A stretch of DNA of 9,295 nucleotides from Promethearchaeota archaeon (GTDB lineage: Archaea; Asgardarchaeota; Odinarchaeia; Odinarchaeales; JBHLKK01), in assembly GCA_048939465.1 (NCBI GenBank), contig JBHLPL010000077.1, positions 1-9,295 of the forward strand. Direction: 5' to 3'. Below are positions 578-9,295 of this stretch, piece after piece. Position numbers and translations under genes: made by a program. The notes beneath the pieces were generated by a model, which ran no database searches, was not told where the DNA came from, and was given only the letters and a program-made list of their open reading frames with translations. The stretch's first letter is position 1. Each line of letters opens with the position of its first letter.

Positions 578-1993
578 ATGGGCATGAAAAGACTCTTTGG
601 AACGTCAGGTGTCCGGGGTGTATACAACACCGAATTTACGCCCCTAATGGCTCTGAAGATGGGACTATCCTTGGGGACATATCTTAGTGGAAAGTCTGTT
701 GTTGTGGGGAGAGACGTAAGAACAACTGCTCGTTCAATTGAATGCGCAGTCACGTCGGGCTTGGTAAACACAGGGTGCAGAGTCCATAAAACGGGGGTTG
801 TTACTACGCCGACTCTTGCATACATGACGAAGTATCTTGATGCATCAGCAGGTATCATGATAACTGCCTCTCACAACCCGCCACCTGCAATTGGCTTGAA
901 ACTATGGAACCCTGATGGAATGGGGTTCACGTTAGAACAAGAGAAGGAAATCGAGAGGATATACTTCAAAGAAGCTTTTTCACCAAAACCATGGCATCTC
1001 TTAGGGAAAACTAAGAACACGGAGACTGCAAACTCTGTTCATATAGAGATGATAAAGAAGAACGTCAATCTCAAGACTATTAGAAAAAGAGGGTTCAGAC
1101 TGGTTGTTGACCCAGGATGTGGAGCAGCTTACAAGATCGCACCCAGATTATCGAGAGAACTAGACTGCAGAGTGACTAGTCTAAATGCCCAGGGAGATGG
1201 CTTTTTTCCAGGGAGAGATCCTGTACCGTCTGAGGAGAATCTAAAGGATCTATCTGCTCTGGTTAGTGCTACTTCTGCTGATCTGGGTGTAGCTTTTGAT
1301 GGAGATGCAGACCGCGTTGTCTTCACAGATGAGAAAGGAAAGGTCATAGAGGGCGATCGACTTCTAGCTGCCTTGGCCAAACGAGAGATCGAGAACGGCG
1401 GCAATGGAAAAACCGTCACTACTATAGAGGGCAGCATGGTAATTGAGGAAGTCATAAACCAATCTGGTGGCGAAGTCTTCCGAACACCTGTAGGTGATAT
1501 TCAAGTAGCAGTTAAGATCAAACAATGCGGAGGTATGCTTGGTGGGGAAGCTTGTGGAACATACATATGGCCTAAGGCTCACTACGCGCCTGATTCCTTG
1601 CTTACAGTGGGAAAGCTGCTTGAATTCCTTGCCGATGATGGGATCGAGATGAGTGAGTTCATTTCATCAATACCCAGATACCCCATTCTGCGCGAGAGGA
1701 TTGAATGTCCTGACAGGTGTAAACAAGTTTTGATGGATAGTTTAGAAAAAAAGCCAAGCATGTTGTTGGAGGAGATGTTTCAAGTACAGAAGGTCGACGG
1801 TTTGCGTTTGCTATCAAACGAAGGCTGGATTCTGATACGCCCTTCTGGAACCGAGCCATTCATACGCCTGACTGTTGAAGCCAAGAGCACTGATGTTGCC
1901 AAAAACTATCTAAAGGAATTGAGCGAGAGACTATCTGGGCTGATTGACAGGCTCAGAAGCAGTAGGAAGCGAGAATTACGTACTGGGAAATAG
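578..1993 (+). CDS. glmM: Phosphoglucosamine mutase / alpha-D-phosphohexomutase (archaeal GlmM/PMM type)
   Basis: Family motifs RLFGTSGVRG, GRDVR, phosphoserine loop ITASHNP, metal loop FDGDADR, sugar loop GGEACG, and C-terminal IRPSGTEPFIR. Substrate (GlcN-P versus Man/Glc-P) cannot be fixed from motifs alone. Confidence 0.9.
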   Translation: MGMKRLFGTSGVRGVYNTEFTPLMALKMGLSLGTYLSGKSVVVGRDVRTTARSIECAVTSGLVNTGCRVHKTGVVTTPTLAYMTKYLDASAGIMITASHNPPPAIGLKLWNPDGMGFTLEQEKEIERIYFKEAFSPKPWHLLGKTKNTETANSVHIEMIKKNVNLKTIRKRGFRLVVDPGCGAAYKIAPRLSRELDCRVTSLNAQGDGFFPGRDPVPSEENLKDLSALVSATSADLGVAFDGDADRVVFTDEKGKVIEGDRLLAALAKREIENGGNGKTVTTIEGSMVIEEVINQSGGEVFRTPVGDIQVAVKIKQCGGMLGGEACGTYIWPKAHYAPDSLLTVGKLLEFLADDGIEMSEFISSIPRYPILRERIECPDRCKQVLMDSLEKKPSMLLEEMFQVQKVDGLRLLSNEGWILIRPSGTEPFIRLTVEAKSTDVAKNYLKELSERLSGLIDRLRSSRKRELRTGK

Positions 1994-2368
1994 GTTAGCT
2001 ACCATTTTTGCATAATTCCTGAATACACTTACAGTATTGCCAAGGCTAGTCATTGACCTTCCGGCACCTATCAGAACTAGCTCTCCTGCTCCAGATAACA
2101 CTATATAGCCCTTTGCTCCCGTAACGATAACTTCCCATAAATCGCCAAATCCCATTCTGGATGAAGCGGTCTCCCCCACATGAAGCATGGCAGCCGAGAT
2201 CGCTGACATCAAATCTGGTTCAACGTCATAGCCAACGGTTTTAAATGCAAGTCGTTGCCCCTCACGCGTAACACAAGCCAAAGCCTCAAGCTCTGTTTTC
2301 ATTGCAATCTCACTAAGGTAGTTGGCCAGTTTCTTTGCTTTTTCTGGAGTGATTTTAACGGACGACAC
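1976..2368 (-). CDS. Roadblock/LC7 (MglB-like) domain protein, 130 aa
   Basis: Typical roadblock pattern: helix, ALACVTREGQRLAF strands, DLMSAISAAMLHVGETASSRMGFGDL helix, EVIVTGAKGYIVL-GAGELVL strands, C-terminal helix. GTG start 7 nt after AGGAGGA. The 3' end overlaps glmM convergently by 18 bp. Confidence 0.85.
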   Translation of the reverse strand: MSSVKITPEKAKKLANYLSEIAMKTELEALACVTREGQRLAFKTVGYDVEPDLMSAISAAMLHVGETASSRMGFGDLWEVIVTGAKGYIVLSGAGELVLIGAGRSMTSLGNTVSVFRNYAKMVANLFPST

Positions 2369-2419: not shown

Positions 2420-3316
2420 TTACTTTTTCTTTCCCTTTTTCTCTTTTGTTTCCTTTTTCTGCTTTTTCTCTTTACTAGGAACATCTATCTTAAAGAAATC
2501 GACTAAATCACTCAGGTGCAGCTTCATTTCTTCTCGCAGTGAACGAGGGGTAGCACCCTCGGCAGGAACTTCGATAGTTTTCCCTGTTTTAAGGAACTCC
2601 ACAGCTAAAACCCGACCCTTGTCCACAATTACTCTAGGTGTGTATCCCTCTGCAAAGAATATTCCCTCGGGCAGCTTAGCAGCTTTTTCAAGTTTTGTTT
2701 CGACTTTTTTTTCCCCCAGAAAAATAGTTCTGTATTCTGTGATTGCATACACTTCATTTCCAACAATGACCAATTCTCTTTCGTATCCGCGAGGAATCTC
2801 GATTTTCTCAAGTTTTGAGATCACCTCTGCTTCAAGTGGTGTAACGATTGATATGTCAGGGGAGGGCGTAGGAGATGGAGCGGGTGGAGTAATCTGGGTT
2901 CTTGGTGCTTCTGGTTTTCTAACGGGCTCAGGAGCAGGAGCAGCCGGCGTTGGAACAGATTTGGGAATTGCGACGGGTGCAACGGGAGGCTTGGGTTCAG
3001 CCGGAAGCGGAGGACGCTTGGCTTTCTTCGGTTTGACTCCTATTGAATTGAGAAACTCTTCTGATTCGTCACCTTCATCGATGCTCAAAGTCTTATAGGT
3101 CAGTCCTCTCTCTTGTCTTATTTGGTTGGCTACTCGGGCACTAATAAATTTCTGTCTGACAGGAGCGCCACTGCCTTTCCATATCCATACTTTCTTTGTG
3201 TCATCATCTATCAGAATAAGAACCTTATCGCTGGCCAAATGACTCTTAATGGGCTTATCCCCTTTTAGCTCGTCTAGGTCGCCAGAATCTGATACACCAT
3301 AGACTATCATAGCCAT
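2420..3316 (-). CDS. Single-domain gelsolin-like protein with Pro-rich linker, additional C-terminal domain and polybasic tail (1DGelX-like architecture), 298 aa
   Basis: The N-terminal ~93 aa match the gelsolin repeat pattern (LASDKVLILIDD..KKVWIWKGSGA..RQKFISARVANQI....IDEGDESEEFL). Start moved from the track's TTG 3385 to ATG 3316 because AGGAGA lies 8 nt upstream and a TATA box falls inside the longer ORF. Confidence 0.8.
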   Translation of the reverse strand: MAMIVYGVSDSGDLDELKGDKPIKSHLASDKVLILIDDDTKKVWIWKGSGAPVRQKFISARVANQIRQERGLTYKTLSIDEGDESEEFLNSIGVKPKKAKRPPLPAEPKPPVAPVAIPKSVPTPAAPAPEPVRKPEAPRTQITPPAPSPTPSPDISIVTPLEAEVISKLEKIEIPRGYERELVIVGNEVYAITEYRTIFLGEKKVETKLEKAAKLPEGIFFAEGYTPRVIVDKGRVLAVEFLKTGKTIEVPAEGATPRSLREEMKLHLSDLVDFFKIDVPSKEKKQKKETKEKKGKKK

Positions 3317-3324
3317 TACATCTC

Positions 3325-3330
3325 TCTCCT
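3325..3330 (-). promoter_or_regulatory. Shine-Dalgarno site for the gelsolin-like gene
   Basis: AGGAGA, 8 nt upstream of ATG 3316. Confidence 0.6.
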
Positions 3331-3363
3331 GCGTTTTGGTTTCAATCTTTATTATTATTTTCC

Positions 3364-3380
3364 TATAATTTAACTTTTCC
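3364..3380 (-). promoter_or_regulatory. BRE/TATA promoter for the gelsolin-like and roadblock genes
   Basis: Minus strand GGAAAAG-TTAAATTATA. The predicted start site near 3340 lies just upstream of the RBS. Confidence 0.55.
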
Positions 3381-3454
3381 TTCAACCATTATTAACTGCA
3401 ACAGTCTTGAAACAAAATCCTCCAACCATCGCAAGGGTTCACTTCAGGGGAAAT

Positions 3455-4975
3455 CTATCGTAAGCAATCCTCTATAGCCTTGGGCAGCATTTCTATAATA
3501 TCAGTGGCAACAACGTGATATCCCAGCTTATCCACAACCAAGTCGCCAGATCGACCATTAATGAATGCGGCCGAAACTGCGGCTCTAAATGGATCAGAAC
3601 CTTGCGAAAGAAATGTCGCCACAATGCCACTGAGGACATCACCTGTGCCTCCCACTGTCATGCCAGGATTTCCGGTAACGTTAATCTTGTAAGATTCTCC
3701 ATTTGAAATAATGTCTTCATGTCCTTTGAGAAGTAAAACTACGCCGAGTTCTCTTGCTGTCTTCATTACTTTGTTGATTCTACTCTGAAGATTGTCAGAT
3801 GAAGGCAGGACTTCGCCGGTTAATTTATTATATTCGCCGGCGTGCGGCGTTAAGACAGCAGGTACCCCTTTCAAGATTGTTTTCTCCTTCGCCATTGCCT
3901 TCAGGGCATCTGCATCAATTAGTGCTGGTTTGCCCAACTTCTTGATAGTATCCAAGATTTTAAGTACAGCATCCATTGTTTGTGACTCAACACCTAAACC
4001 AGGGCCGATGGCTACACAGGATGCCCAATCGATTAATCCTTTCAACAATGGGAGCGCATTCTCAGTAAGAACATCCCCAGGTAAGCTGCGGACAATTAGG
4101 TTCGGAGAGAAGCTCCTTACTGCATCGACGACGCTGTTCGGAGTGGCGACAATTACCAGGTCCGCCCCAGTTCTGAGGGCAGCGGAAGCTACAAATGTAG
4201 GGGCTCCGTGATAGTAGCTGCCTCCCCCAATGACCAGGATCTTCCCAAACTCGCCTTTTCTTGCATACGGGCTGCGTTTTCTTACAGTCGCTCCCACATC
4301 TCCAGGTCCTGCAACGATTTCTGCTTCTGGTGGAATCCCGATTCCAGCCACCGTGAGTTCGCCAACATATTGACCTGCTTTCAATAGTCCAGATTTGACC
4401 TTGTGGAATGTTATCGTCATATCTGCTTTAACTGCTCGATCAGATACCTCTCCATTAGATGCGTCTACTCCTGTCGGCGCATCAACAGCTACCTTAAACC
4501 CAGTGGAAGAATTGATCATGTCAACGGCCGTGGCAATGGGATCCTTAAGCTTCCCTGAAAATCCAGTTCCGAGAATAGCATCTACGACTATCTCTGCGTT
4601 CGCCACCAGTCTCTCGACTTCGGGGCCTTCTGAAGAATCTCCCAGAATCACCTTATTTACGGTTAGCTGCATTTTATCTAGGATTGCCCAGTTCCTCCGG
4701 GCTTCAGGAGTGCGAATCCTGTCAGGATGGCCCACCAGAACAAGCCATACTGTGGCTCCTAGCCCGGCCAGATGCCTAGCTGCAACGAATCCATCTCCGC
4801 CATTGTTTCCTGGGCCAGTGAAGATTACGACCTTTTTACCTTTGACCTTCCTGGAGCGATTAATGGCATCCGCCACACCTCGTCCCGCATTCTCCATTAG
4901 GACACGAGGTGAGACTCCCAAATAGCTGGAGTTCTTGTCAATAATTCTCATCTCTTCAACAGTAATAGTATCCAA
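3455..4975 (-). CDS. nnr: Bifunctional NAD(P)H-hydrate epimerase / ADP-dependent NAD(P)H-hydrate dehydratase
   Basis: YjeF_N motifs GPGNNGGDG, DAILGTG and AVDAPTG. Ribokinase-like C-domain motifs IGPGLG, IDADAL, VLTPHAGE, LLKG and GNPGMTVGGTGDVLSG. TTG start preceded by GGGGGG. Confidence 0.95.
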   Translation of the reverse strand: MDTITVEEMRIIDKNSSYLGVSPRVLMENAGRGVADAINRSRKVKGKKVVIFTGPGNNGGDGFVAARHLAGLGATVWLVLVGHPDRIRTPEARRNWAILDKMQLTVNKVILGDSSEGPEVERLVANAEIVVDAILGTGFSGKLKDPIATAVDMINSSTGFKVAVDAPTGVDASNGEVSDRAVKADMTITFHKVKSGLLKAGQYVGELTVAGIGIPPEAEIVAGPGDVGATVRKRSPYARKGEFGKILVIGGGSYYHGAPTFVASAALRTGADLVIVATPNSVVDAVRSFSPNLIVRSLPGDVLTENALPLLKGLIDWASCVAIGPGLGVESQTMDAVLKILDTIKKLGKPALIDADALKAMAKEKTILKGVPAVLTPHAGEYNKLTGEVLPSSDNLQSRINKVMKTARELGVVLLLKGHEDIISNGESYKINVTGNPGMTVGGTGDVLSGIVATFLSQGSDPFRAAVSAAFINGRSGDLVVDKLGYHVVATDIIEMLPKAIEDCLR

Positions 4976-5040
4976 ACTATTGTCCCCCCACGATTGCCAG
5001 AGTAGAGTATCTGAAACTTCTTGGGTTTTAAGATTATCCG

Positions 5041-6876
5041 TCAGTCCTTAAGACCTAGCAGAGTGACTACGGCCGCAGCAAAGACCTTAGCCCCCTCAAT
5101 CATATCGTCGATTTCTATGTACTCATTAGGGCTATTGCATTTCTCTTCATCCCCCGGGCCGAATATACATACAGGTGTCTTACTCTGAACCAGAATCTTT
5201 GCCAGGTTATTTTCTTTGGTTTCAGAGAAGGCGGGTTCCTGATTAGCTGTATTGAACAAACCGTCTCGAACTGCCATCACTATGGGAGCATCAACAGAAG
5301 AAGCAATTTTAGGAGGTTCAGGCAACTGCTCAATGGTTACATCAACATCAGAATCCGATATTTTGATATTATCAACGAGTTTTCGAACTTCATTAAGTAT
5401 CTTTTCATTGTACTCCTTGTACAGATGACGGATGTCCAATGTCGCTTCCGCCCATTCGGGAATACCACCCACACCAGGCATTCCTCGAATCTCCCTTATG
5501 TTAATTGAGCATTTGGCAAGCAGCGGATATTCGTTTCCATCGAAATCGCTAAATCTGATCAGCACTTTGACGAGTTTCTCGGCGGCGTTGATGTCCCTTA
5601 GCGAAGGTTCAAACACCCGTCCTCTGCTTGTAAGTCTGAAGGCTAGTGTCTCCAGTTCAATAGTCTTTATAGTTTTGCAACCAGTAGGGCTGGCTACGAT
5701 GGCATGACTTGGGATAAGTCCTACCTCTTCTATCAGATGCTTCAATCCGATTCTTCCGTCGCCCAATCCATCAGCTACTGCAGCCACCATTATTTGACCT
5801 TTTAATTGTACGTTAAGAACATGTATTGCTCTAAGGGCCATTAAAGCCGAGACCAGAGGTCCTTTACTGCAACAAGCCCCTAGCCCGTATATCCTGTGTT
5901 CTTTTTCAACGGCGTCCAGCGGCGGATGCTTCCAACCCTGAACTTGGGGTGAAACATCATGATGACAGACAAGGAGAACGGATGGTTCCCCTTCTTCGCC
6001 TGACCAACTAACAACATTCGTTCTATCTTTTTCACTTTCATAGACTCTGAACCTGATATTGTCTTTCAGTAGCTCTTCCAAGATTATTCTAGCTGCTCTA
6101 AATTCATGTCCCGGAGGGTTAGTTGTATCAGCACTTATGAGGCGTTTCAATAAATCTACGAAGTCATCTCTATGGGATTCGATCCATTCGTAGACATCCA
6201 TAACAATGTCTGGGAGTATTACAGGCTCGCTGGGGAGCAAATCAGCAGTGGTTGCAGGGATTTCAGATTCTGTTTCGACTTCAGGAACTAGGGCTGCTGA
6301 AGTATCCACAGAGATCTCTGGAGGTATTCGGGCGGGAACCTCAGTTTCGATTTCCTCAGGCTTCTCACCGGCCGTAACAGTCGCTACTATCTTGAATACG
6401 TCCGCCACTTTTTCTCCGGTTTTGGCACTCGTCTCCACATAATCCATCCCGAGCTCGTCGGCTAATTCTTTTCCTTCCTCATAGCTTACTTCCCTTGCCA
6501 AATCAGTCTTATTGCCGACCAGTATTCCAGGAACAGCCCCGACCACCGAGTCAATATCCTTAAACCAATGCCTGACATTCTCAAATGATGGTCGGTTAGT
6601 GACATCGAAGACATAGATGACCCCCCTGGCTCCAGGATAGAATATTCTACGAAGATCTTTGAAGGTATCCTGACCGCCTAAATCCCAGATTTGCAGTTTG
6701 GCTGAAATACCATTAAGATCTACATTCTTAATGGCGAAGTCAGCTCCGATGGTCTTCTTATAGGTCTCTTTGAATGAATCTTCAGTGAATCGTAGAATAA
6801 GACTGGTCTTGCCGACCATGCCGTCTCCAACAGTAATTATCTTGAACATATATTTTGTGGCTCTAGGCAAATCCAT
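5041..6876 (-). CDS. Fusion of a Rab-like small GTPase (aa ~8-170), an acidic Pro-rich linker (aa 171-225) and an M20/ArgE-DapE-like domain with a degenerate active site (aa 226-611)
   Basis: G1 GDGMVGKT, G2 KTIGADF, G3 WDLGGQ, G4 NKTD, G5 ETSAK. M20 landmarks LLKRLISADTTNPPG.E, RTNVV, HHDVSP..GWKHPP, IYGLGA..SKG, INA, IPEWAEATLDIR and FGPG....SPNEYI. One uninterrupted 611-codon ORF. Confidence 0.9.
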   Translation of the reverse strand: MDLPRATKYMFKIITVGDGMVGKTSLILRFTEDSFKETYKKTIGADFAIKNVDLNGISAKLQIWDLGGQDTFKDLRRIFYPGARGVIYVFDVTNRPSFENVRHWFKDIDSVVGAVPGILVGNKTDLAREVSYEEGKELADELGMDYVETSAKTGEKVADVFKIVATVTAGEKPEEIETEVPARIPPEISVDTSAALVPEVETESEIPATTADLLPSEPVILPDIVMDVYEWIESHRDDFVDLLKRLISADTTNPPGHEFRAARIILEELLKDNIRFRVYESEKDRTNVVSWSGEEGEPSVLLVCHHDVSPQVQGWKHPPLDAVEKEHRIYGLGACCSKGPLVSALMALRAIHVLNVQLKGQIMVAAVADGLGDGRIGLKHLIEEVGLIPSHAIVASPTGCKTIKTIELETLAFRLTSRGRVFEPSLRDINAAEKLVKVLIRFSDFDGNEYPLLAKCSINIREIRGMPGVGGIPEWAEATLDIRHLYKEYNEKILNEVRKLVDNIKISDSDVDVTIEQLPEPPKIASSVDAPIVMAVRDGLFNTANQEPAFSETKENNLAKILVQSKTPVCIFGPGDEEKCNSPNEYIEIDDMIEGAKVFAAAVVTLLGLKD

Positions 6877-6945
6877 CCCCCAAAATCATATCCTTTTTCT
6901 TGTCATATTACTTTTTCTGCCTTATACTAGAGTTAAGAATCTCTT

Positions 6946-6980
6946 TATCCTGTCAATATTATTATAATAGGGACAAGATA
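6946..6980. promoter_or_regulatory. AT-rich TATA-like core flanked by an imperfect inverted repeat, in the divergent promoter region
   Basis: TATCCTGTC (6946-6954), 17-nt spacer, GACAAGATA (6972-6980): 8 of 9 bases complementary. The spacer contains the palindrome TATTATAATA (6960-6969). Confidence 0.35.
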
Positions 6981-7139
6981 TAATAAAATTTCCATAATGA
7001 TGCGGATGATAGATTGCTATCTTGATTTCTTTAGAACCTCTTTTCACTATTCTGTGATTATCATAAAAGCAGGGCTTCCTCTTTGCGAAAGAATTAAATG
7101 TTTAGGAACGAAACTTTAGATTGATCAAAGCTTTCGGTG

Positions 7140-7982
7140 ATGAAGTTGATACGAGAGGTTCTGGTATTGGACAAAAGTGGGGAAAAACTCTTTCACCGAG
7201 CATATACAAAGTCTAAGGAGATTTCAGTTGATGCTATACTGCCCACAATTCTAGGCGCGTCTGAGAGAATGGAAATGGGGAATATTGAGCATACAAACAT
7301 TGTTCGTTTTCGGTTCTCCTACCTCAAGTCGCACGGCAAGATATTCGCAGTGCTTAGTGATAGGACTAACTCGGAGCGGGAGATTCAAGAGGCTTTACTG
7401 CAGATAACGACCAACTTCCTTAAGAGGTTTGGACAAGAGTCTCAGACAAATAGTAGCCCCAAGCTGGCCGACGGTTTCAACAAAGAAGTAATAGAAATCG
7501 TGAGTAAGCTCCCTGTGAAACTATCCTTAGTCGGATTCGGTGGTGTTGGAAAGACTACTATACTTCGCCTTCTGCGAAAAGAGGAAATTCCGATGAAGTA
7601 TATTCCGACAATCTTCGCCGACAGAGAACCACTCACAGTTACGGTAGGAATTTACTATGTTATGGTATTTGATTTCGCAGGTCAGGAGCAATTTATGGCT
7701 GCTTGGGATATACTTGTCAAGGGAACGGAGGTCATTGCTATAATCATTGACTCTACGGTGGACAACATGAAGCTAACAAAAGAAAAGATCTTTCCTTTGG
7801 TCAGAAGTAAAGCACCTTACTCAAAGATTATAGCAATTGCAAACAAGCAGGATCGTGGAAATGCAATTCCTCCCGAGGAAATTGAAGAGATACTTGGTGT
7901 TAAGACCTATGGCCTAGTGGCTATAGAGAAATCACAGCGATCCAACCTTTTGGAACTCTTGGAGAAGATAATCTTAGAATAG
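7140..7982 (+). CDS. Longin-domain + small GTPase fusion (Arf-like features), ~280 aa
   Basis: The N-terminal ~125 aa follow a longin pattern (IREVLVLDKSGEKLFHRAY ... FAVLSDRTNSEREIQEALLQITTNFLKRF). C-terminal G1 GFGGVGKTT, G2 YIPTI, G3 FDFAGQ, G4 ANKQD, variant G5 LVAI. Start uncertain: GTG 7137, ATG 7140, or TTG 7146 after a GGTGA RBS. Confidence 0.85.
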   Translation: MKLIREVLVLDKSGEKLFHRAYTKSKEISVDAILPTILGASERMEMGNIEHTNIVRFRFSYLKSHGKIFAVLSDRTNSEREIQEALLQITTNFLKRFGQESQTNSSPKLADGFNKEVIEIVSKLPVKLSLVGFGGVGKTTILRLLRKEEIPMKYIPTIFADREPLTVTVGIYYVMVFDFAGQEQFMAAWDILVKGTEVIAIIIDSTVDNMKLTKEKIFPLVRSKAPYSKIIAIANKQDRGNAIPPEEIEEILGVKTYGLVAIEKSQRSNLLELLEKIILE

Positions 7983-8114: not shown

Positions 8115-8945
8115 ATGGCAAAACTCAAAGTGGGATTGATCGGGTGTGGGGCAATCGGAAACCTTATCTCTAAAGCAATTGAGGAAGGCAAAGCCGGAGA
8201 TACTGAACTGGTAATGGTATATGATGTGATAAAAGAAAAGGCTGAAGAGTTTGTACAGCTGATGCCGGAGAGACCAAGAGTAGCCGATACTGCGGAGGAA
8301 ATCATTGAAAGTGATCTAATTAACTTGGTTGTAGAGGCAGCTTCTCAGGGGGCTGTTAAGGAATATGCAGTTAAGATTCTAAATTCAGGAAAGGATCTTT
8401 TAATTTTGAGCATCGGAGCTCTTGTAGATAAACAACTACTGAAAGCGATTGAAGAAACTGCGGAGAGAAACGATAAGATAGTCTATCTCCCGTCAGGGGC
8501 AGTGGTTGGCCTTGATGGTGTGAAATCCTCTTCAGTGGCTAAGCTTTCTGAAGTATTATTGACCACACGAAAGAATCCTGAAATACTGAAAGGAGCACCC
8601 TACATCATTCAGCACAAGATTGACTTGGATTCGGTGAAGGAGCCAACTGTAGTCTATGCCGGGTATGCTGAGGAGGCAGCAAGAATGTTTCCCAAGAATA
8701 TTAATGTTGCCGCAGTTCTAAGCTTGGCAGGAATTGGGGCAGAAAGAACCAAAGTCCGAATAATAGCGGATCCGACAGTGCACAAGAATGTCCATGAAAT
8801 CGTTGTAAAAGGGGACTTCGGTACCTTAAAGACTCACGTGGAGAATGTACCCTCATCCCACAACCCTAAGACAAGTTATCTTGCAGCGCTCTCAGTTATC
8901 AGAACGTTAAGAAAAATCGGAGAACACATACAAATAGGAACTTGA
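8115..8945 (+). CDS. nadX: L-aspartate dehydrogenase (de novo NAD synthesis)
   Basis: Rossmann motif KVGLIGCGAIG, plus VVEAASQ.AV, LSIGAL, YLPSGAVVGLDG, TTRKNP, FPKNINVAA and NPKTSYLAALS. Immediately upstream of nadA. Confidence 0.95.
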   Translation: MAKLKVGLIGCGAIGNLISKAIEEGKAGDTELVMVYDVIKEKAEEFVQLMPERPRVADTAEEIIESDLINLVVEAASQGAVKEYAVKILNSGKDLLILSIGALVDKQLLKAIEETAERNDKIVYLPSGAVVGLDGVKSSSVAKLSEVLLTTRKNPEILKGAPYIIQHKIDLDSVKEPTVVYAGYAEEAARMFPKNINVAAVLSLAGIGAERTKVRIIADPTVHKNVHEIVVKGDFGTLKTHVENVPSSHNPKTSYLAALSVIRTLRKIGEHIQIGT

Positions 8946-8960
8946 TAATTGGCGATCGAC

Positions 8961-9295
8961 ATGCGTTCGCTAAATAGACTGCAAAAGAAAGTATTGCAAC
9001 TGAAAGAAAGAGAAAACGCCGTGATGTTGGTCCATAACTATCAGGTATCAGAAATACAGGAAATAGCAGATTTCATCGGAGATTCTCTTCAGCTTTCCAT
9101 TAAGGCCGCTGAAGTTGAGAACATGGATTATATCGTTTTTTGCGGAGTAGATTTCATGGCTGAAACTGCTTCGATCCTTAACCCGAACAAGAGAGTAATA
9201 CTACCAGCGATAGAGGCCAGATGCCCCATGGCTGCTATGCTTACGGCGGAAAAGGTGATTGAAGCAAGAGGGCAACATCCGGATGCCCTAGTTGT
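8961..9295 (+). CDS. nadA: Quinolinate synthase A, 5' part (runs off the right edge)
   Basis: Manual translation: MRSLNRLQKKVLQLKERENAVMLVHNYQVSEIQEIADFIGDSLQLS...IVFCGVDFMAETASILNPNKRVILP..EARCPMA. Shows HNYQ, GDSL, VFCGVxFMAE and the first Fe-S Cys (CPMA). Alternative in-frame TTG at 8949. Confidence 0.95.
   Translation, partial: MRSLNRLQKKVLQLKERENAVMLVHNYQVSEIQEIADFIGDSLQLSIKAAEVENMDYIVFCGVDFMAETASILNPNKRVILPAIEARCPMAAMLTAEKVIEARGQHPDALV

Follow-up and report, generated by a model that had tools for sequence, protein, structure and literature searches.

The 9,295-nucleotide contig JBHLPL010000077.1 of the Promethearchaeota archaeon assembly GCA_048939465.1 (the whole of this stretch is called the window below) carries a gene for a protein in which a Rab-like GTPase domain is followed by a full-length fold of the M20 (ArgE/DapE-type) metallohydrolases. 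This single-chain architecture is real and rare. Our analysis favors, at a probability of about 55%, an explanation in which a working Rab-like switch is connected through a flexible linker to a noncatalytic M20 scaffold, the M20 half having been eroded stepwise in a family that stems from a single fusion. The evidence for the history of the family is much stronger than that for a scaffold role of the M20 module.

The gene is a single uninterrupted open reading frame (ORF) of 611 codons on the reverse strand, running from the G domain through a linker into a complete M20 fold with its lid. A continuous ORF joining the two domains had been proposed in a first-pass annotation made from the DNA letters alone, and both an ORF scan and Pfam bear it out. 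Pfam assigns residues 12 to 165 to Ras (PF00071; E = 8.7e-52, 175.4 bits), residues 302 to 603 to Peptidase_M20 (PF01546; E = 1.4e-19, 71.3 bits, cutoff of 24.6), and residues 429 to 505 to M20_dimer (PF07687; 28.6 bits, cutoff of 21). No COR or Robl_LC7 domain matched the fusion protein (Pfam, E <= 0.01), and Roc matched the G domain only. AlphaFold2 (AF2) prediction of the monomer gave two confident domains separated by a disordered linker, with a mean predicted local distance difference test score (pLDDT) of 88. In alignments, the linker of the window protein is ∼40 amino acids longer than that of the Jordarchaeial and Freyarchaeial proteins described below; the AF2 model of a Freyarchaeal orthologue (pLDDT, 92.6) contains a low-confidence linker of only 9 residues (175 to 183). 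The predicted template modeling scores (pTM) of 0.77 for the window protein and 0.70 for the Freyarchaeal orthologue suggest no fixed interdomain pose, pTM in itself neither showing nor excluding docking. Complex prediction for the G domain (residues 1 to 175) and the M20 module (residues 225 to 611) returned a score of 0.10 (mark, 0.34), which speaks neither for nor against contact between the two.

All of the GTPase motifs named in the first-pass annotation are present: GDGMVGKT, the switch-I Thr (T42 in the window protein), DLGGQ with the catalytic Gln69, NKTD, SAK, and the RabF-like words IGADF, KLQIW, FYPGA, and VFDVT. IGADF and KLQIW match RabF1 and RabF2, and FYPGA and VFDVT approximate RabF4 and RabF5, the correspondence of RabF3 to RabF5 being approximate only. 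Across the fusion family, the core residues of G1, G3, G4, and G5 and the switch-I Thr are invariant and other motif positions vary; the G domain is intact in every fusion lineage. The label “Rab-like” is justified because the solved structures most closely related to the G domain are Rabs, namely, Rab1A (E = 1.8e-43), the Thorarchaeota Rab 7EZB (E = 6e-39), Rab8, Sec4, and Ypt1. The top 60 matches in the PDB are all Rab, Ypt, Sec4, or Thor-Rab, and the G domain scores only 55.6 bits as Arf and 22 bits as Gtr1_RagA, compared to 175.4 bits as Ras. Asgard Rab-like GTPases (7EZB) and the eukaryotic Rab1, Rab8, Ypt1, and Sec4 likewise possess G1 to G5, the catalytic Gln, and RabF1/RabF2-like words, but they end after the G domain, whereas the window protein adds a C-terminal extension of 440 residues (linker and M20). 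A prenylatable C-terminal Cys motif (CC, CXC, or CAAX) is absent from the window chain, which ends ...LLGLKD after the M20 module, and prenylation cysteines are also absent from other Asgard Rabs (PMC10933270).

The M20 half is CATALYTICALLY degenerate. Five of the seven catalytic or metal-ligand positions are replaced and only H305 and D307 are kept, as read from alignments to Escherichia coli ArgE (7RSF) and to the fusion family, which agree. Within the di-metal set His/Asp/Glu/Glu/His, the first His (H305) alone remains, the other positions being occupied by C336, L371, S396, and N581, and the general-base Glu of the M20 xEE motif has become Gly370. These replacements are invariant in the three copies aligned (the window and two of the three other copies from its genus). 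The NCBIfam model for ArgE/DapE deacylases (TIGR01910) matches residues 240 to 598 at 156.8 bits, below its cutoff of 217.6. The fold is nevertheless kept: pLDDT is mostly >90 over residues 225 to 611, and Foldseek matches the module to DapE (5VO3) and ArgE (7RSF), with E values of 1e-27 to 1e-24 and TMt of 0.67 to 0.80 (0.80 for 5VO3), and also to LysK. The two-lobed catalytic-plus-lid fold is thus common to this module and the ArgE/DapE/LysK metallohydrolases (TIGR01910; 7RSF, 7UOI, 5VO3, and 5XOY), but in the module, unlike in those enzymes, three further ligands are missing along with the bridging Asp and the catalytic Glu, and the module is fused to a GTPase. The first-pass annotation was therefore correct in recognizing a full-length M20 fold but not in reading it as that of a normal enzyme; judged by its residues, the domain is most likely no longer a di-metal hydrolase. 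The same genome also encodes M20 outside the fusion, in at least one ORF that carries the conserved motifs of the catalytic site (HxD, GxGxxDxK, and DEE).

Despite these losses, the M20 module is under strong purifying selection. Ratios of nonsynonymous to synonymous substitution rates (dN/dS), calculated by the Nei-Gojobori method among four close copies of the genus, with dS near saturation for some pairs, were 0.03 to 0.09 for the G domain, 0.03 to 0.07 for the M20 module (0.04 to 0.10 for its lid), and 0.17 to 0.59 for the linker. The M20 domain is as constrained as the G domain and is therefore not a decaying passenger. The earlier suggestion of a repurposed metabolic domain fits these data, because the catalytic Glu and four of the five metal ligands have been lost, yet purifying selection is strong.

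Several lines of evidence establish that the junction is genuine. First, three further copies with 83 to 89% amino acid identity retain one continuous frame and the same gene order and neighbors; one is from the NCBI metagenome-assembled genome (MAG) GCA_048886745.1 (labeled Candidatus Hodarchaeota), one from a Logan assembly built from another run, and one from a second species genome in GTDB. Second, a 5,774-bp contig from a mangrove metagenome of another sample spans positions 4900 to 7000 of the window with two substitutions and no indel or joint, and a second run covers positions 4900 to 6576 without any difference. Third, in a coexisting strain from a third study, 23 of 25 listed variants fall at third codon positions of the fusion frame and 22 are synonymous; 14 of the synonymous variants lie in positions 6094 to 6235, at the linker/M20 boundary. 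Misassembly is excluded by diverged copies in frame, a contig from another sample across the joint, and mostly synonymous variants. At positions 6056 to 6272 of the window, one metagenome (run X7) contains two coexisting strains that are ∼8% apart at synonymous sites.

The possibility that no other genome has the fusion was not borne out, as five or more lineages of Asgard archaea carry it. When 400 Asgard species genomes were searched in six frames with the M20 half, fusion-length ORFs (575 to 612 amino acids with an N-terminal P-loop) were recovered in all of the searched GTDB species genomes of the window's genus (3/3), Jordarchaeales (5/5; the identity of this GTDB family is taken from NCBI records), and Freyarchaeum (6/6). 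The Jordarchaeia fusions (“Ca. Freyarchaeum deiterrae” WXG40460.1 and Jordarchaeales MEM1724104.1; 575 to 576 amino acids) have the same domain order and length class as the window protein at ∼38% identity but differ from it in a shorter linker, another gene context, and the state of the M20 site, of which Freyarchaeal fusions keep 7/7 positions and Jordarchaeal fusions 6/7 (one ligand Glu lost), compared to 2/7 in the window genus. The best G-domain match elsewhere (62% identity) led to the “Odinarchaeia” MAG GCA_054383415.1, which encodes a fusion of 587 amino acids at the locus here termed L023 (4001 to 5764), where, because of a short run of N, the annotation shows two pieces, a “partial Rab family GTPase” and a 371-amino-acid protein without a name. 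These C-terminal 371 residues have no Pfam match and 0/7 site positions, and, within the phylum, it is precisely the fusion proteins that they match best. In a sister family of the window's GTDB order (here termed the order-mates; genomes of 1.3 to 1.4 Mb), 4/4 genomes contain ORFs of 557 to 563 amino acids with a strongly conserved G domain (Ras match of 181 bits) and no C-terminal Pfam match. The C-terminal half (∼370 amino acids) of these ORFs aligns to the M20 scaffold, but the metal-ligand loops are deleted (window residues ∼308 to 333 and ∼573 to 583); the lid region is without large gaps even in these, the most eroded relatives.

Both the G and the M20 halves of the window protein group with other fusions, placing it within the family. 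Word-index searches found just two close fusion homologues, and the distant ones came from six-frame genome searches. A HMMER search of 1.84 billion cluster representatives gave two fusion-length clusters only among the best 150 M20 relatives, and all non-Asgard relatives of the M20 half that were examined are stand-alone. Lineage names are provisional because NCBI and GTDB labels for the MAGs disagree (at NCBI, the nearest MAG is labeled Candidatus Hodarchaeota and that of L023 Odinarchaeia).

The Asgard-specific fusion family most likely goes back to a single event that joined a Rab-like GTPase to an active M20 deacylase. The trees were obtained by quick searches, with support from the Shimodaira-Hasegawa-like approximate likelihood ratio test (SH-aLRT) only. 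In the M20 tree, a single clade (SH-aLRT, 85) unites the three fusion groups with two stand-alone sequences, and the window genus has a stem of 1.42 substitutions/site, compared to 0.40 to 0.54 for the other fusion groups. When all 12 fusion G domains were constrained to one clade, the log likelihood was 22.5 better than that of the free quick search, and this tree was not rejected (approximately unbiased test, P = 0.79). One origin followed by divergence is compatible with both halves, given the M20 clade and the unrejected one-clade tree of the G domains. The route between the Jordarchaeia and the window's order may have been vertical descent with losses or transfer.

In the explanation that we favor, the ancestral fusion would have joined a Rab-like GTPase and an active M20 deacylase in a single event. 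The enzyme half would then have been eroded stepwise, from the intact site of Freyarchaeia, through loss of one ligand in Jordarchaeales, five of the seven positions in the window genus, and all of them in L023, to deletion of the loops in the order-mates. The M20 module would now be a noncatalytic structural appendage that keeps the two-lobed fold and the lid, and it may dimerize or bind a partner and so present or pair the tethered G domains, the GTPase presumably being the active part of the fusion protein. A structural role is the most economical because the switch and a two-lobed domain of ∼370 to 390 residues are constant across the family and the former active site is not. Further, pocket residues are not conserved family-wide and order-mates have lost the loops, a pattern that favors a scaffold over a conserved ligand pocket. 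Lid-mediated dimerization is a property of ArgE/DapE-type M20 enzymes, and dimerization or scaffolding by the M20 module of the fusion, as well as any coupling of it to the nucleotide state, is our inference.

Several points weigh against this explanation. First, dimerization would be carried over by analogy from knowledge of the M20 family, and partner binding is conjectural. Second, the lid (dimer) region is ruled out as the best-conserved part of the module: its identity to L023 is 20%, compared to 26% for the catalytic lobe, and the dimer interface is thus not singled out as a conserved feature. Third, the former pocket is invariant within the genus and has gained Cys and His residues (C304, H306, C335, C336, and C580), which could indicate that the site is not dead but has been remodeled to hold a metal or ligand. 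Fourth, purifying selection across the whole M20 module fits ligand binding equally well. Fifth, no neighboring gene is common to the whole fusion family among the loci compared (window genus, L023, and Jordarchaeia/Freyarchaeia), and no function is drawn from gene context because no partner is conserved family-wide.

The dead M20 pocket might instead bind an N-acyl amino acid, a dipeptide, or a similar ligand and relay its occupancy to the switch, which would make the protein a nutrient-sensing GTPase in one chain, a reading that goes back to the first-pass annotation and that we do not favor and consider unlikely. It would account for catalytic residues that are gone from a fold under strong purifying selection, as in many ligand-binding pseudoenzymes, and for pocket-lining positions that are invariant within the genus; the ancestral state, still found in Freyarchaeia, would have been an enzyme with a substrate pocket. 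Between lineages, however, the pocket residues are unconserved, and both L023, with 0/7 positions, and the order-mates, with the ligand-bearing loops deleted, keep the fusion. Nor does AF2 give a confident fixed domain orientation, the linker being disordered and pTM as given above, and the G domain is Rab-like, not Rag-like. For the same reason, the parallel previously drawn with CASTOR and SAMTOR upstream of the Rag GTPases is an analogy only. Like the window protein, CASTOR1 and SAMTOR retain a metabolic-enzyme-type fold without its original catalysis in a GTPase-linked setting, but they are separate proteins that act via GATOR on Rag GTPases and have demonstrated ligand binding, whereas the M20 domain of the window protein shares one covalent chain with its Rab-like switch.

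In a wider version of this idea, the switch would carry its own effector or sensor in the form of the M20 module: an ancestral GTPase-gated deacylase, a state that Freyarchaeia would still show, might have become in the window lineage a regulatory pseudoenzyme that reports to the G domain a metabolite (N-acyl amino acid or dipeptide) or, via the new Cys/His cluster, a metal/redox state or that pairs two G domains. We consider this quite unlikely. To our knowledge, no effector of an Asgard small GTPase has been identified to date, and the module, if the proposal were true, would be the first identifiable one; the family would then be a stepwise natural record of enzymes becoming regulatory subunits of GTPase signaling before eukaryotes.

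It is highly doubtful that the residues C304, H305, H306, C335, C336, and C580 make up a new center, rich in thiolates, that binds metal or is redox active and serves another catalysis or sensing. They are invariant in the three aligned copies and appear, in the alignment, to cluster at the former metal-ligand positions. Against such a center, the general-base Glu is Gly, and the Cys/His pattern is genus specific, since it is absent from L023, the order-mates, and the Jordarchaeia and Freyarchaeia.

A localized or regulated enzyme, in which the G domain would target or gate a still-active M20 hydrolase and the window protein would be weakly active, is very improbable for the window protein. 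This reading probably holds for Freyarchaeia and Jordarchaeia, because their sites keep 7/7 and 6/7 positions, respectively, but the replacements in the window protein include the catalytic Glu and the bridging Asp, its TIGR01910 score is below the cutoff, and the M20 stem of the window genus is ∼3 times longer than those of lineages with an intact site. Finally, an artifact of assembly or a functionless M20 remnant drifting to loss would explain the missing catalytic residues and nothing else, and it can be dismissed almost entirely in view of four diverged copies and independent contigs that keep the frame, the low dN/dS of the M20 module, and a C-terminal domain of ∼370 amino acids that is kept even where Pfam no longer recognizes M20.

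The favored structure, a switch with an appended scaffold, has counterparts among known GTPases. Rag/Gtr proteins (roadblock C-terminal domain) and Roco proteins (Roc-COR) combine a Ras superfamily G domain and a dimerizing non-GTPase domain in the same chain. The window protein would resemble them in that its G domain is followed by a non-GTPase domain in one chain, but it has no roadblock or COR match in Pfam, and the domain added to its switch comes from a metabolic enzyme. Asgard archaea have dozens of Rab-, Ras-, and Arf-like GTPases. Fusions of small GTPases to other domains that are limited to narrow Asgard subsets have been described before (bioRxiv 10.1101/2020.10.19.343400), and Asgard GTPase fusions with longin and roadblock have been listed (PMC10933270). 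The literature searched did not mention a Ras/Rab-M20 fusion, such absence not being proof of novelty. The architecture is apparently undescribed, as had been supposed at first sight, and public records name one half only (“M20/M25/M40 family metallo-hydrolase,” “ArgE/DapE family deacylase,” or “Rab family GTPase, partial”), with WXG40460.1 and MEM1724104.1 both deposited as “ArgE/DapE family deacylase.” Current annotation misdescribes the fusion genes.

Because relatives carry the M20 half intact, half-eroded, or unrecognizable, the fusion records an enzyme turning into a noncatalytic part of a GTPase. The partner domain is here covalently attached and identifiable, and its states range from a predicted active enzyme to an unrecognizable relic while the switch remains intact. 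The family offers a clear case of a pseudoenzyme evolving while purifying selection continues, and it is a tractable system, in which orthologues with an intact, half-dead, or dead M20 domain can be compared for what a Rab-like switch does to or with an attached domain in a prokaryote.

Features of the window and of related loci are listed in the table below. The gene directly downstream of the fusion encodes a bifunctional NAD(P)HX repair enzyme (YjeF), and this adjacency is kept in the genus (L001, 8904 to 10421; L002, 3055 to 4572) and in the distant L023 (5837 to 7393). Beyond the genus, the NAD(P)HX repair gene is the sole neighbor retained beside the fusion (genus and L023 loci). Cotranscription of the two genes is possible because they are on the same strand, are separated by a gap without an oligo(T) run, and remain adjacent at 62% G-domain identity. 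The order fusion-YjeF-48-amino-acid ORF-PGM (phosphoglucomutase) is the same in L023 and the window. Flanking genes of eukaryotic signature type (roadblock, gelsolin-like, and longin-Arf) keep their order in the genus (L001) and partly in L023, and the window also contains housekeeping genes for PGM/PMM (phosphomannomutase), NAD(P)HX repair, aspartate dehydrogenase, and NadA.

The neighbors differ in the Jordarchaeia and Freyarchaeia. In Freyarchaeum, a gene for NikR (nickel-responsive regulator) lies 22 bp downstream of the fusion, and in Jordarchaeales, the fusion is directly preceded on its own strand by a small Nudix hydrolase gene; both groups have RpiA and two thioredoxin-reductase-like genes close to the fusion. 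A loose theme of metabolite repair (YjeF and Nudix) may connect some of these neighbors and is left as a lead.

Features of the Rab-M20 fusion gene, its protein, and its neighborhood. Positions refer to the window unless a locus is named.
Feature	Position	Strand	Basis or remark
Whole Rab-M20 fusion gene	5041..6876	-	611 aa + stop; TGA at 5041-5043
Rab-like G domain, residues 8-170	6367..6855	-	Pfam Ras; Rab1A and 7EZB matches; AF2 pLDDT mostly 81-98
G1 P-loop GDGMVGKT, residues 17-24	6805..6828	-	G, G, V, and GKT invariant across fusion family
G3/switch II DLGGQ, catalytic Gln69	6670..6684	-	Invariant in all fusion lineages
G4 NKTD, residues 122-125	6502..6513	-	Motif read in sequence, family alignment
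G5 SAK, residues 150-152	6421..6429	-	Motif read in sequence, family alignment
Linker, residues 171-224 (54 aa)	6205..6366	-	Glu/Pro-rich; predicted disordered; AF2 pLDDT <50 for 177-213
M20 (ArgE/DapE-type) module, residues 225-611, catalytically degenerate	5044..6204	-	Pfam, TIGR01910, Foldseek
His305-His306-Asp307, sole canonical M20 site positions retained (first metal His and its Asp)	5956..5964	-	Alignments
Cys336 replacing metal-bridging Asp (GACCSKG vs GRGxxDxKG)	5869..5871	-	Alignments
Gly370-Leu371 replacing catalytic Glu and metal-ligand Glu (ADGL vs ADEE)	5764..5769	-	Alignments
Ser396 replacing metal-ligand Glu	5689..5691	-	Alignments
Lid/dimerization domain of M20, residues ∼405-515	5332..5664	-	PF07687, 28.6 bits
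Asn581 replacing last metal-ligand His	5134..5136	-	Alignments
AT-rich intergenic region, common to divergent longin-Arf-like GTPase gene; putative promoter region	6877..7136	.	TATA-like runs; GGGGG just before ATG
Bifunctional NAD(P)HX epimerase/dehydratase (YjeF_N + Carb_kinase), directly downstream	3455..4975	-	65-bp gap, no oligo-T run
Gelsolin-repeat gene with second, unassigned domain	2420-3385	-	Flanks fusion
Roadblock/LC7 gene	1976-2368	-	Flanks fusion
Longin + Arf-like GTPase fusion	7137-7982	+	Divergent from Rab-M20 gene
NikR/Nudix neighbors, Freyarchaeum and Jordarchaeales	L019 7735-8166; L020 7497-7907; L021 10094-10495		

Three minor observations concern the surroundings of the fusion. 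An ORF of 48 amino acids lies beside PGM/PMM in the window (∼289 to 435), in L001 (13452 to 13598), and in L023 (7750 to 7896) and is called in two related contigs; its recurrence suggests a real small gene. Genes of NAD biosynthesis are clustered at positions 8115 to 9293 of the window (+ strand; aspartate dehydrogenase and NadA) and on a longer related contig (L001, 2740 to 5379), where quinolinate phosphoribosyltransferase (QPRTase) follows them, and one Jordarchaeal genome has a QPRTase gene at a distance of ∼3 kb from the fusion (L021, 12975 to 13841). At ∼3.6 kb from the fusion gene, a Jordarchaeal genome also encodes another Rab-like GTPase, one that stands alone (L021, 4051 to 4623).

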